DNA of 64,000 nt, taken from the NCBI RefSeq assembly GCF_030013205.1, contig NZ_CP122648.1. One strand, given 5' to 3'. Positions within the stretch are counted from its first letter, which is position 1. Each line of letters begins with the position of its first letter. The position numbers are program-made. Positions 23,501-26,500 of this stretch are shown here, piece by piece. Source of the stretch: Escherichia coli (GTDB lineage: Bacteria; Pseudomonadota; Gammaproteobacteria; Enterobacterales; Enterobacteriaceae).

Positions 23501-26500
23501 GCTCCGGCTGAGTAGTCGAGGATGTCGCTGATGACGTGTTCGCCGTCGCGCCAGAACTGACGGCAGGCTTCAATGTCGGCAATGAATCGATCCATTCCGT
23601 AAGACTCAAGGACGAGCATTGAGTGCTCCATATTCCATTCACCGCATCCATAGTCCCCTTCGTCTGCTCCGGGGAATTTATCGACGAGACGCATGTAAAA
23701 AAAACAAGTTCACCCGCCACTTCGTCCAAATCAACGATTTCACGCTCCAGCGCCATATCGAGAGGGATTGTGTCGTAGCCTTTGCCCTCCACTGGATAAA
23801 CAAGGTTTGCCAGGCGAATAATTTCGTTTATGAGCGTATTACGTATGCCTTTCTCCCCATCCCATAAACCGGAGTCACGGGAGATTTTCTCCAGCATAAG
23901 GCAGGCAACGCGCGGACCCGCAACAACACCAAGACCTTCAGAAAAAATGGCAGAAAAGGTTTTACTCAGGATGAAGAAATGCTCTTTAAACACCTCTTTG
24001 CTGATCGGCGTGGCATGGAGCCAGCCATTACCCTTTTCAGTGCGCACAGGGATAATCAGATTTAAGTTTTTAGCAATTTTCATGATTCACTCACTCTGTT
24101 TTTTTCCAGTTGATCCAGCCGCCCGGATATTTCTTCCAGTTTTTCCAGAGCTGGCTTGCAGGCCGCATCAATAACTTCACGGACCATTCCGGCGAGCTGT
24201 TCTTCTTCTGTCGGCGTTGTTACTTCCACACCTGATGGTTTCCCGCCCTTATCCCATACGCCCAACGGTACGAGCGCAACGTGATCGATAAGAAATGGCG
24301 TACCCTCAATGAAAAAATTGTCCTCGCCCATTACATCAGGAACTTCTGCCCCACCGGACGCACCACAAAACACAACCGACGGGCTGGTGGATACCTCCCC
24401 CCGTGCTTTCTGGATGTAATCGATGATTTCCTGCCCGTAAATCCGGCATACACCCCACACCTCGTCACCGCGAATATACGGCAACATGACGGTGCCAATA
24501 ATGCGCGACCGTTCGCCAACGTCTTCAATGGTTTTGCCTTCGGGATGGTCGATAATGACGGGTACTCCGGCGCAACGTTCCAGGAACTGCGGATTGAGAT
24601 AAGTTTGCGGTGAACGCCAGACAAATTCTTTTTCTTCGGCGCGGTAGGCCATGCCAGTCCCTGTAATACGCAGGTTAACCAGCCACATGTTGGAGAACTG
24701 ATAAGGCGACGGTAGCTGACCGTCCCGAATCTGCTTTGCCGCCTCAATTTCTGTTAAAAGCATAATGTCACCCGGTTATAATCAATAAGCCCCGCCAAAT
24801 CCGGCAGGGCTGAAATCAGCACGTTTTTCATGCCCCCGCGAGGCTTGCAACGTTAATTTTGACCAGGCGACGGGGAGGGATTTTGAAAGCACTAAGCCAG
24901 TTATTCGGATCCCCCTGATATTCAGTAATCCGGCGCCCGGCTTCATCCATCCTGACTTTTTTAGTCAAATAACCCGGCGTGTTTTCCACGGCCCACTGAG
25001 CACTTTCCTGAGCAGCCTTGTAAATCTGATCTTCCAGCACCGCCAGCGTTGCAGAATCTGAAACGGAACGAATATCCACATCACTGAATTTTTTAGCCAG
25101 CTTCTGTGCGCCAATTAATGCACGCTTGCGGTAATCCATCGACTTTTCACCAGCAAACGGGGCCGGAGCTCGACGGCCCATATTGCTGTATGCGGAATCC
25201 GCTTTGGCCTGGGCTTCTGCCAGTGAGGATTCATCTTCGACTGACGCGACGATGTTTTGATTAGCGTTATCCTCTTTTATGAAATCCTGTGCGGGGATCG
25301 CATTCAGAATTTCGATAATCTCCTGCGGAGTGCTGCCCTGCGACTCTGACAGAGCGTTAACCACCTCCATCAGTTTTAATCGCAAATCTTCTTTGCTTGC
25401 TGGCATTTTTACCACCTCTCTTTTTTCACCAAAAAATCACGACCATCAGGCCGGACGTTCTACGGGATAAAGCGCCCGCTGCATTAAACGCCGGGCGACC
25501 TCATGAATGCTCGGAGCAATCCCCAGCGGAGAATTGCGGCGTTCCTCGTCCTGGATGCGCTGTAATGCTTCAATCTGATCACGAGCGAGTAAAACAGGTT
25601 TCACGCTGGCTTTTCTCATAGTCATATCTCCTGAACAAAACAACGATTATGATTGCACAAACTGAAATGACGATCTACATCATTGCAATTTATGAAACAA
25701 TAACGCATGATGATCGCGTTCTTCCCATTGACTTCAATCACCTGAAAAACAAAGCCCGCAACACTTCTGGCTGCGGGCTTTTTACTGGCACAAAAAAGCC
25801 GGGAAAAATCCCGGCCTCCGTCACTGACTGCAATTTTTCGATCCAGGGTATTTCCTGAATGCCTTACCATTGGGCTGATGTAATCCCATCCCGGCATGTG
25901 CCCGGCTGATGGTTTCGCGCATCTCCCCGAAATTATCCTGCCGTGCTGGTGGGCGTGCTGCCTTGCGGATACATTCCGCGCGACGTTTTGCCGCCTGTTC
26001 CCGTGCCTTGTCATCATTCGCCAGCATGATGACCTCAGCCCACCGCGCCGCCGCTCTCCGGTACAGACCACGCGCTTCCAGTGCTTCCGCTTTGCTGTCG
26101 TGAATCATGCGCCTGTTTTCTCCTTTGCTACCCGGCGCTGACGTTTGCGCTTCTCATTCAGCGCCACCAGCCGCGTTTCTGCGTCCTGTTGTTCCTGTGG
26201 TGTCACCTCGCCGCACGGCTGGCCTTTCAGGTCGTAGCGTACCCCACCAGCCATTAAGGCGCGGTAATAGCGCGGACACTGTGCATAAGATGCCAGCGTC
26301 GCACGCAATGCCCCTGGACCGAATGCCAGCCCCCTGACGGCGAGATCCTGCATCAGGTCGTCGAATATCCCCACCTTAAGCGGCTTCGGTGCTTCCCGGC
26401 TGAATAATTCAGGCCACAACTCAGTGAGGCGGTTAATGCGCCTGCGGTTTTTGCGCTGGCGCTTGGTCATATGCCGCCACAGTGTCGCCCCTGTGGGCTT

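Follow-up and report, generated by a model that had tools for sequence, protein, structure and literature searches.

In the Staphylococcus aureus pathogenicity island SaPI1, the small protein CpmB shares the capsid-binding C-terminus of the helper phage scaffold and competes with that scaffold during head assembly (PMC6893505). Other satellites take other routes: SaPIbov5 (with Ccm) and PmCI172 encode diverged versions of a helper structural protein, the major capsid protein (PMC8569155, PMC6092414), P4 Sid and PLE TcaP, which are not related to helper proteins, build a cage on the outside of the head, and capsid-forming phage-inducible chromosomal islands (cf-PICIs) encode a complete head, including a major capsid protein, portal, large terminase, and connectors. 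For the Gram-negative phage-inducible chromosomal islands (PICIs), the genes behind head exploitation were left unidentified in the founding paper (PMC6092414). Analyzed here was a window of 64,000 nucleotides from the chromosome of the pig isolate Escherichia coli ETEC4079 (contig NZ_CP122648.1, with 100% identity to NZ_CP122643.1), in which a satellite island of ~13.2 kb is inserted between yejO and tRNA-Pro/yejM. Within this island lies a module of three genes, two of which appear to be the separated halves of a phage protease-scaffold gene, and the module may be the means by which the satellite exploits the head of its helper.

An earlier note on this DNA had proposed that three open reading frames (ORFs), one of them for a 227-aa protein ending in a predicted coiled coil, may form a morphogenesis-redirection module upstream of a chaperone/tape-measure pair, comparable in role to Sid and CpmB. 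All three ORFs were confirmed on the minus strand, together with a hairpin between two of them:

25446..25619, minus strand: gene of the 57-aa protein, first gene of the operon, with an ATG start and an AGGAGA ribosome-binding site
24828..25406, minus strand: gene of the 192-aa protein, with an ATG start and a GAGAGGTGG ribosome-binding site
24788..24811, minus strand: GC-rich hairpin between the 192-aa and 227-aa genes, with a 10-bp stem that includes 7 GC pairs
24080..24763, minus strand: gene of the 227-aa protein, a predicted stand-alone prohead (capsid maturation) protease of the DUF2213/Pa193_gp24 type with a 41-residue C-terminal helix

A mechanical ORF list gives 195 aa for the 192-aa gene, counted from a GTG at 25415. 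All three genes, that of the 227-aa protein included, are preceded by a plausible ribosome-binding site. The coupling of the 227-aa gene to the chaperone gene was also borne out, as the stop and start codons overlap in ATGA at 24080-24083. The general idea of a satellite morphogenesis module upstream of the chaperone and tape measure genes was retained, while its interpretation as an unrelated, Sid-like analogue was not, as the module appears to derive from the protease-scaffold gene of the helper itself. The lack of sequence resemblance stated in the note applies to Sid and CpmB only, as clear phage homologs of the proteins exist.

The two larger proteins matched separate stretches of a single profile, phrog_6216 (545 profile positions): the 227-aa protein at positions 115-326 (E=1.9e-79), the 192-aa protein at positions 409-544 (E=1.9e-46). 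Both parts were found in a single gene in 14 phage records, with the protease part followed by the C-terminal part, and phages place the protease before the C-terminal domain whether the two are fused or called as separate genes. For example, the 430-aa protein of the Escherichia myophage Rac-SA53 consists of a protease, an Ala/Glu/Lys-rich linker of ~70 residues, and a C-terminal domain. The 227-aa protein aligns with residues 3-226 of this protein at 54% identity, and residues 58-186 of the 192-aa protein align with its residues ~295-423 at 64% identity over 129 residues. By these alignments, the satellite carries a predicted phage protease-scaffold gene that has been cut in two, with the halves in reversed order and the linker absent.

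P2 gpO is the standard example of a single chain that unites protease and scaffold, and genes for such fusions usually lie between the portal/head-morphogenesis and the major head genes. The role of P2 gpO is also mentioned in PMC6893505. In Rac-SA53, the gene order is large terminase, portal, head-morphogenesis, 430-aa protein, 205-aa protein, and major head protein, and the later genes include tail sheath, tube, chaperone, tape measure, and baseplate hub; the Klebsiella phage Chronis has the same gene layout. The phage homologs are encoded between portal and major head genes, neither of which is present in the satellite.

In a neighbor-joining tree of the protease domain, the satellite copies formed one clade, sister to a clade of Rac-SA53-like prophages. 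As the satellite proteases are confined to a single clade, the tree points to a single capture of the phage gene by the satellite lineage. In all six elements compared, which come from E. coli, Pantoea, and Klebsiella aerogenes, none of the three module genes was disrupted. Between E. coli copies, the ratio of nonsynonymous to synonymous substitution rates (dN/dS) ranged from 0.12 to 0.20 for the 192-aa and 227-aa genes (0.14-0.19 for the former), and the 57-aa gene showed zero nonsynonymous changes. Judged by these comparisons, the 57-, 192-, and 227-aa ORFs are real genes under purifying selection. The layout of the module was likewise conserved. The islands of Pantoea agglomerans and K. aerogenes encode proteins of 57 aa, 190-199 aa, and 221-224 aa, followed by two small terminase (TerS) genes and no tail genes; both carry an integrase, a primase, and PerC, and the K. 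aerogenes island additionally an HTH_17 regulator. The E. coli relatives have the common order of 57, 192-194, 217-227, 175, and 59 aa. The order of 57-aa, ~192-aa, ~225-aa, and TerS-like genes was thereby kept inside islands with int, AlpA, primase, and PerC genes.

The homology assigns the scaffold-like part of the module to the 192-aa protein, not to the 227-aa protein. The former keeps the most conserved blocks of the helper C-terminal domain, and its extreme C-terminus, WLSAFKIP.RRL.KIN, is nearly identical to that of Rac-SA53. Its N-terminus of ~55 residues, with a conserved MPA..EDLK.KL.E... motif, was found in satellite copies only and stands where the phage protein has the linker. The C-terminal domain was present in 1,351 representative clusters, invariably at the extreme C-terminus, and its hosts were either long protease fusions or stand-alone proteins of 220-300 aa. 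Structure prediction and comparison, which the earlier note had suggested as a check, spoke against a scaffold in the case of the 227-aa protein, which was predicted as an assemblin-fold protease, and gave a helical model without a PDB neighbor for the 192-aa protein. The AF2 model of the latter (pLDDT 79.9) contained five helices, one beta hairpin, and a short C-terminal helix, and no match below E=0.3 was found by Foldseek against the PDB. Additionally, nothing meaningful was obtained when PDB sequences were searched with the 175-, 192-, and 227-aa proteins or with family profiles of the 192-aa and 57-aa proteins, and NCBIfam gave no match to any of the three module proteins. A lack of structural neighbors in the PDB is usual among scaffolding proteins.

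The RefSeq name of the 192-aa protein, NUDIX hydrolase, was rejected, as no NUDIX match was found in PHROG or NCBIfam, and the satellite-type homologs have no precomputed Pfam domain. The name arose because phage homologs carry an N-terminal NUDIX fusion: in some of them, the protease is preceded by a fused NUDIX domain, which is not alignable to the 192-aa protein. The name is wrong for the 192-aa protein family. Many database entries for relatives of the protein are also named NUDIX hydrolase.

The 227-aa protein further matched phrog_530, head maturation protease (E=1e-5), and Pfam DUF2213 (i-E=7.2e-6), and its residues 1-182 form a predicted assemblin-fold protease domain. The DUF2213/Pa193_gp24 assemblin fold is the same as that of T4 gp21 and herpesvirus assemblin, and the triad of the herpesvirus protease is His/Ser/His. 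In an alignment of 32 satellite and phage sequences, H73, S125, T126, S127, and P128 were invariant, and D160 and H161 were nearly so. The candidate catalytic residues, chosen by their order along the sequence, are H73, S125 or S127, and D160 or H161; this order matches the His..Ser..Asp of the T4 gp21-type triad (PMC5694885). The enzyme is probably active, since the positions H73, S125/S127, and D160/H161 were retained in all satellite copies.

The long coiled coil that had been predicted at the end of the 227-aa protein did not withstand analysis. Residues 186-226 were modeled by AlphaFold as a single 41-residue helix (pLDDT ~67-78) that contains a proline, and in a crude test its heptad score was matched by 327 of 500 shuffles. 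The homologous helper segment has strong heptads, with a score reached by 1 of 500 shuffles; by this homology, the satellite protease would keep the first helix of the otherwise missing linker. A pairing of the C-terminal helix with the scaffold-like protein is a conjecture. The hairpin upstream of the protease gene has counterparts of different sequence in the same intergenic position in Pantoea and K. aerogenes, and the one in K. aerogenes ends in a U7 tail, as expected of a canonical terminator. The hairpin at 24788-24811 is probably a partial terminator or attenuator, which would set the scaffold-to-protease ratio such that more scaffold than protease is made.

The distribution of the module suggested a link to a particular helper. 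Among 5,426 complete E. coli genomes, 33 carried the module, most of them from enterotoxigenic and Shiga toxin-producing E. coli (ETEC and STEC) of pig, cattle, and goat, and head genes of the Rac-SA53 type (at 80% coverage or more) were found in 81 of the same 5,426 genomes. Co-occurrence was observed in at least 19 of the 33 module genomes, where ~0.5 would be expected if the two were independent; this overlap is a lower bound, with 79 of 88 helper head-gene match records listed. In STEC719, STEC005, ETEC1732, and cq9, the module and the helper-type head genes are ~35 kb apart. The Pantoea agglomerans satellite adjoins a Rac-SA53-like prophage (L007 10724-12462), whose large terminase (TerL) is represented by its last 111 residues only, with 80% identity to Rac-SA53 TerL. 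The truncation suggests an insertion of the satellite into the helper or a recombination with it. The Rac-SA53-like prophages form an identifiable candidate helper family, and LT-II enterotoxin genes can be among their contents. In ETEC4079 itself, one region considered as a candidate helper proved to be ordinary chromosome.

The function proposed for the module, which is considered rather probable, is a takeover of helper head assembly by the satellite that most plausibly gives small heads. Upon induction of, or infection by, the helper, the 192-aa protein would be made in excess, bind the helper major head protein via the shared C-terminal domain, and compete with the helper protease-scaffold. 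Procapsid assembly would thus be taken over, most plausibly toward heads small enough to hold 13 kb but not the helper genome of 45-52 kb. The helper protease would normally enter procapsids on its scaffold, and its displacement would leave shells without protease; the 227-aa protease of the satellite would then mature the satellite-directed shells, and the 57-aa protein would be a conserved accessory of the same operon. Under this model, the satellite keeps a protease of its own because that of the helper rides on the displaced scaffold, and it must use the head protein of the helper because it has no major capsid, portal, or large terminase genes. The length of 13.2 kb corresponds to 0.25-0.29 of helper genomes of 45-52 kb, which is near the volume ratio of T=3 to T=7 shells, (3/7)^1.5 = 0.28.

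Several observations weigh against a takeover that yields small heads. Four copies of 13.2 kb amount to ~52.8 kb and would also fill one full-size helper head, and the heads that package the Gram-negative PICI EcCICFT073 are of full size (PMC6092414). The binding of the capsid by the C-terminal domain is argued from gene order and from the constant C-terminal position of the domain. Pa193 gp24, the namesake of the Pfam family, counts in favor of a scaffold role, as a putative scaffolding protein for which a helix-turn-helix was seen under the capsid fivefold vertices (PMC11456595), but its residues 286-326, the only visualized capsid-binding segment of the family, were not alignable to the 192-aa protein, in a mapping attempted via the PB1 homolog where hhalign aligned the protease region only and with low probability. 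One phage contig contains a 186-aa gene call for the C-terminal domain beside a head gene of normal size. A gap of 400 nt upstream suggests that this call is broken, and given the call, the short N-terminus by itself was dropped as proof of small heads. The poor heptad score of the 227-aa helix belongs among these points as well. The co-occurrence figure makes no correction for common descent or for sampling, and many of the genomes are pig ETEC from one study. Lastly, the Rac site between uspF and ttcA is empty in ETEC4079 (L023 31889-33434; 2731888-2733433), so that no helper resides at this site, and the strain is absent among the 79 of 88 helper-positive matches listed. The satellites of ETEC4079 may be waiting for an incoming helper.

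Some of the same observations would suit a module that serves interference only, in which the scaffold fragment caps sites on the head protein, the free protease cleaves helper head proteins prematurely, and satellite multimers are packaged in normal heads. Helper yield would fall in this case, and no distinct satellite capsid would be built. The homology to helper parts and the logic of competition fit this explanation equally, four satellite copies approximate a helper genome, and EcCICFT073 hampers its helper without a change of head size (PMC6092414). It is nevertheless held to be unlikely, as a poison would require neither intact catalytic residues, nor a conserved N-terminal domain, nor a ratio-setting hairpin, all of which were kept in three genera, and as the module shares one operon with packaging genes, like the size-redirection genes of SaPIs (PMC6893505). 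Somewhat less credence is given to a support of assembly at normal size, where the satellite adds or replaces scaffold and protease, for example when late expression of the helper is shut down or outpaced. Two proteins that look functional and are under purifying selection would be expected in this case, and the spare tail parts carried by the family in a cargo slot (see below) suggest a habit of supplying helper-type parts, but the duplication of parts already made by the helper offers no obvious advantage, and the loss of the linker, the new N-terminus in every satellite copy, and the inverted gene order would be left unexplained.

The first proposal, in which the 227-aa protein itself would act as a coiled-coil scaffold or determine head size in the manner of Sid or CpmB, is disfavored and regarded as very improbable. 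The predicted 41-residue helix at its end and the homologous helper segment, which starts the coiled-coil linker, lend themselves to such a view; set against them are the protease domain of residues 1-182 with its conserved catalytic positions, the proline and the lack of significant heptads in the helix, and the lack of any PHROG or Pfam match to size-determination proteins. The least credible explanation, a functionless and decaying prophage remnant, is contradicted by the conservation data: while the genes are homologous to prophage genes and bear RefSeq names that are vague or wrong, they were intact in every copy examined, with low dN/dS (0.12-0.20), monophyly across genera, and a fixed operon layout, and were always located inside islands with integrase, AlpA, and primase.

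For the preferred reading, a takeover of head assembly, the closest functional analogue of the 192-aa protein would be SaPI1 CpmB, an internal size-determining scaffold that acts with CpmA. Like CpmB (PMC6893505), the 192-aa protein is small and predicted to be alpha-helical, with a helper-derived C-terminus, a different N-terminus, and a TerS-like gene nearby. Unlike CpmB, it shares with the helper a domain of ~130 residues at 64% identity and not a short motif, its partner gene is a protease and not CpmA, and the helper scaffold is fused to the protease. The likeness is one of logic, with no sequence relationship apparent from the Pfam-derived annotations of homologs, which list no CpmB-type family. 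With phage members of the DUF2213/Pa193_gp24 family, such as Pa193 gp24 and PB1 gp22, the module has in common the protease domain, with its predicted fold and candidate catalytic residues, as well as the C-terminal domain; it differs from these fusions in that the gene is split, the order is reversed, the linker and NUDIX domain are gone, and portal and major head neighbors are missing.

The island resembles the cf-PICIs as an enterobacterial satellite with an integrase, AlpA, a primase, and its own predicted head-maturation protease. An identity as a cf-PICI was rejected, however, as no head, portal, or large terminase gene was found among the ORFs and annotations of the island, and connectors are likewise not encoded. 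As in SaPIbov5 Ccm and PmCI172, a diverged homolog of a helper structural gene was captured, but the captured gene is here the protease-scaffold gene. The presumed goal of satellite-sized heads would be shared with P4 Sid and PLE TcaP, unlike the cage by which those proteins act. No similarity to Sid or TcaP was found, and no Sid or Psu match was found in PHROG or Pfam for the 57-, 192-, and 227-aa proteins. In a literature search, no paper was found that links DUF2213 to satellites or describes the module. The module would offer a concrete candidate, with definable residues, for head exploitation by Gram-negative PICI-type satellites. If confirmed, it would represent a further route of capsid piracy through the capture, splitting, and reordering of a helper protease-scaffold gene.

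The 57-aa protein was the most conserved of the three module products, with 65-73% identity across the E. coli, Pantoea, and K. aerogenes satellites and an invariant SPLGIAPSIHEVARRLM core. No match to it was found in Pfam, PHROG, NCBIfam, or the PDB, including a PDB search with the family profile, and no homolog was found in helper-type phages; by these searches, the protein is specific to these satellites. A by-eye impression of a ribbon-helix-helix protein was unsupported by the Pfam, PHROG, and PDB profile searches. Two features were identified upstream of its gene:

25751..25781, minus strand: strong intrinsic terminator after the PerC gene, with a 12-bp stem followed by a T-run, kept in three genera
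25646..25673, minus strand: promoter-like site 5' of the 57-aa gene, TCGTCA-16-CATAAT, a consensus match only

The predicted terminator sets the morphogenesis genes apart as a transcription unit of their own. A block of ATTTCA..TTGCAA..TGTGCAA.ATAAT located 5' of the 57-aa gene, within which the promoter-like site falls, is common to E. coli, Pantoea, and K. aerogenes. Positions 25620-25750 of the window, conserved in the three genera, contain two TGCAA(T/C) motifs ~30 nt apart, which may be a putative regulator site for helper-dependent activation.

Downstream of the protease gene, the island carries tail genes and a gene for a protein with a TerS-like N-terminus:

23466..24083, minus strand: tail assembly chaperone, G-like, 205 aa, 82% identical to Rac-SA53 rac52
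23401..23703, minus strand: slippery sequence T_TTT_TTT (23703-23697) and -1 frame extension (GT-like)
21362..23401, minus strand: tape measure protein of 679 aa, in which a hydrolase-like domain has been swapped in at the C-terminus
20783..21310, minus strand: 175-aa protein with an N-terminal helix-turn-helix (HTH) like that of small terminases, part of the conserved core in E. coli

The chaperone/tape-measure pair assumed by the earlier note was thereby substantiated, through the identity to rac52, the slippery site, and the homology to the tape measures of pPE4 and Rac-SA53. In Rac-SA53, rac52 lies between the tail tube and the tape measure genes. The T_TTT_TTT sequence occurs at codons 127-128 in the window, in Rac-SA53, and in the distant Chronis; the -1 frame is open for 98 codons, and its stop overlaps the ATG of the tape measure gene. 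The GT-like extension gave a full-length match to phrog_14324 and is 75% identical to its Rac-SA53 counterpart. By homology, the 205-aa gene and its extension are a classic chaperone G/GT arrangement. The RefSeq annotation covers the 205-aa frame only, without the frameshift extension.

Over residues 1-501, the 679-aa protein and the pPE4 phage tape measure share 88.6% identity; the identity to the Rac-SA53 tape measure is 49-51% (49% over residues 1-455). Its PHROG matches include tape measure, endolysin, and tail injection transglycosylase, and its last ~180 residues (~501-670) match tail proteins of unrelated phages. By its homologies, the satellite tape measure is a chimera, and a tape measure gene in a satellite is unusual in itself. 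Phages that share the C-terminal domain include Pantoea PA-1, Serratia BZS1, and Pseudomonas Orisa.

The chaperone is absent from many members of the family. Between the protease and the 175-aa genes, a slot was empty in some satellites, held the chaperone and tape measure genes in the window, and in E. coli strain 08-00022 (L011 5631-6934) held homologs of rac55 and of the baseplate hub gene rac56, with 78% and 72% identity. The junction of the slot was placed at the 3' end of the protease gene because the last protease codons differ between variants. The comparison identifies the chaperone and tape measure genes as cargo of a variable slot, outside of the conserved core. It is possible, as a tentative extension of the proposed function, that the satellite family both rebuilds head assembly, through a shortened scaffold that yields small shells and a separate protease, and customizes the stolen tail via the cargo slot. 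The slot contents would in that case be alternative tail injection parts, either a chaperone with a domain-swapped tape measure or baseplate hub genes. A satellite-borne tape measure or baseplate hub would bear on the spread of these islands among pig and cattle ETEC and STEC.

The 175-aa protein matched phrog_57, terminase small subunit, over residues 1-42 only (E=5e-7), with a weak match to Pfam HTH_17. Its gene occupies the position of the bona fide TerS genes in the Pantoea and K. aerogenes satellites, and, in a check for an Rpp or TerS homolog, no similarity was found to Rac-SA53 TerS, the TerS of the Pantoea satellite, or any PDB chain. The protein is a candidate packaging-specificity factor.

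The remaining features describe the satellite as a whole and its surroundings:

19552..32735, no strand: whole satellite, bounded by 26-nt direct repeats, with tRNA-Pro alongside
32854-32930: tRNA-Pro, flanking the satellite
31403-32644: integrase gene, at one end of the satellite
30697-30903: gene of an AlpA-type regulator
27114-28529: gene of a RepA-type helicase
26923-27116: 3-4 iteron copies of TCCTCACTTTTT at intervals of 83-85 nt, immediately following the RepA-type helicase gene on its 3' side
25821-26108: PerC gene

The direct repeats (19552-19577 and 32710-32735) are identical at 25 of 26 nt and lie 13,158 bp apart. The island genes follow the order of integrase, 76-aa gene, AlpA-type regulator, Icd-like remnant, 121-aa gene, DUF4222, RepA-type helicase, ProQ/FinO, PerC, the 57-, 192-, and 227-aa ORFs, the 205-aa gene, the 679-aa gene annotated as lytic transglycosylase, and the 175-aa and 59-aa genes. 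All annotated genes are on the minus strand except for one small YlcI-family gene. PICI origins are usually found just past the helicase or replication gene, and the iterons at 26923-27116 are probably the replication origin of the satellite. The island fits the architecture described for Gram-negative PICI-type satellites (PMC6092414), and it is assigned to this type because an integrase, att-type repeats, a size within ~10-15 kb, AlpA, a helicase, and adjacent iterons are present. Searches of the island with PADLOC gave no defense-system match, and the tRNA alone was matched by Rfam. An element of strain ETEC4090 at the same yejM-yejO locus matches the window satellite in gene order and product lengths, with Pfam matches to Phage_AlpA on its 68-aa gene and to AAA_25 on its 471-aa gene.

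ETEC4079 contains three copies of the module. One of them belongs to a second island, located at tRNA-Gly and equipped with a different integrase and primase (L010, ETEC4079 955583-977146), where it is 100% identical to the module query of 1,564 nt. Replication and integration modules were shuffled among the members of the family, with examples that include a RepA helicase, a D5/DUF5906 primase, and DUF927. Accessory genes differed as well: genes of a SEFIR/TIR-domain protein and of superinfection-exclusion protein B (SieB) lie at the far ends of two of the E. coli elements, and the K. aerogenes satellite contains an internal Q-like antiterminator upstream of PerC (accessory genes at L016 11504-12943, L011 3948-4493, and L009 7253-7906). 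Between the 59-aa and 175-aa genes of the window, at 20549-20782, the sequence TTGACACTTTTT(CGCG) occurs in 3-4 copies, and these repeats could be a candidate packaging (pac/cos-like) site or binding sites of the HTH protein.

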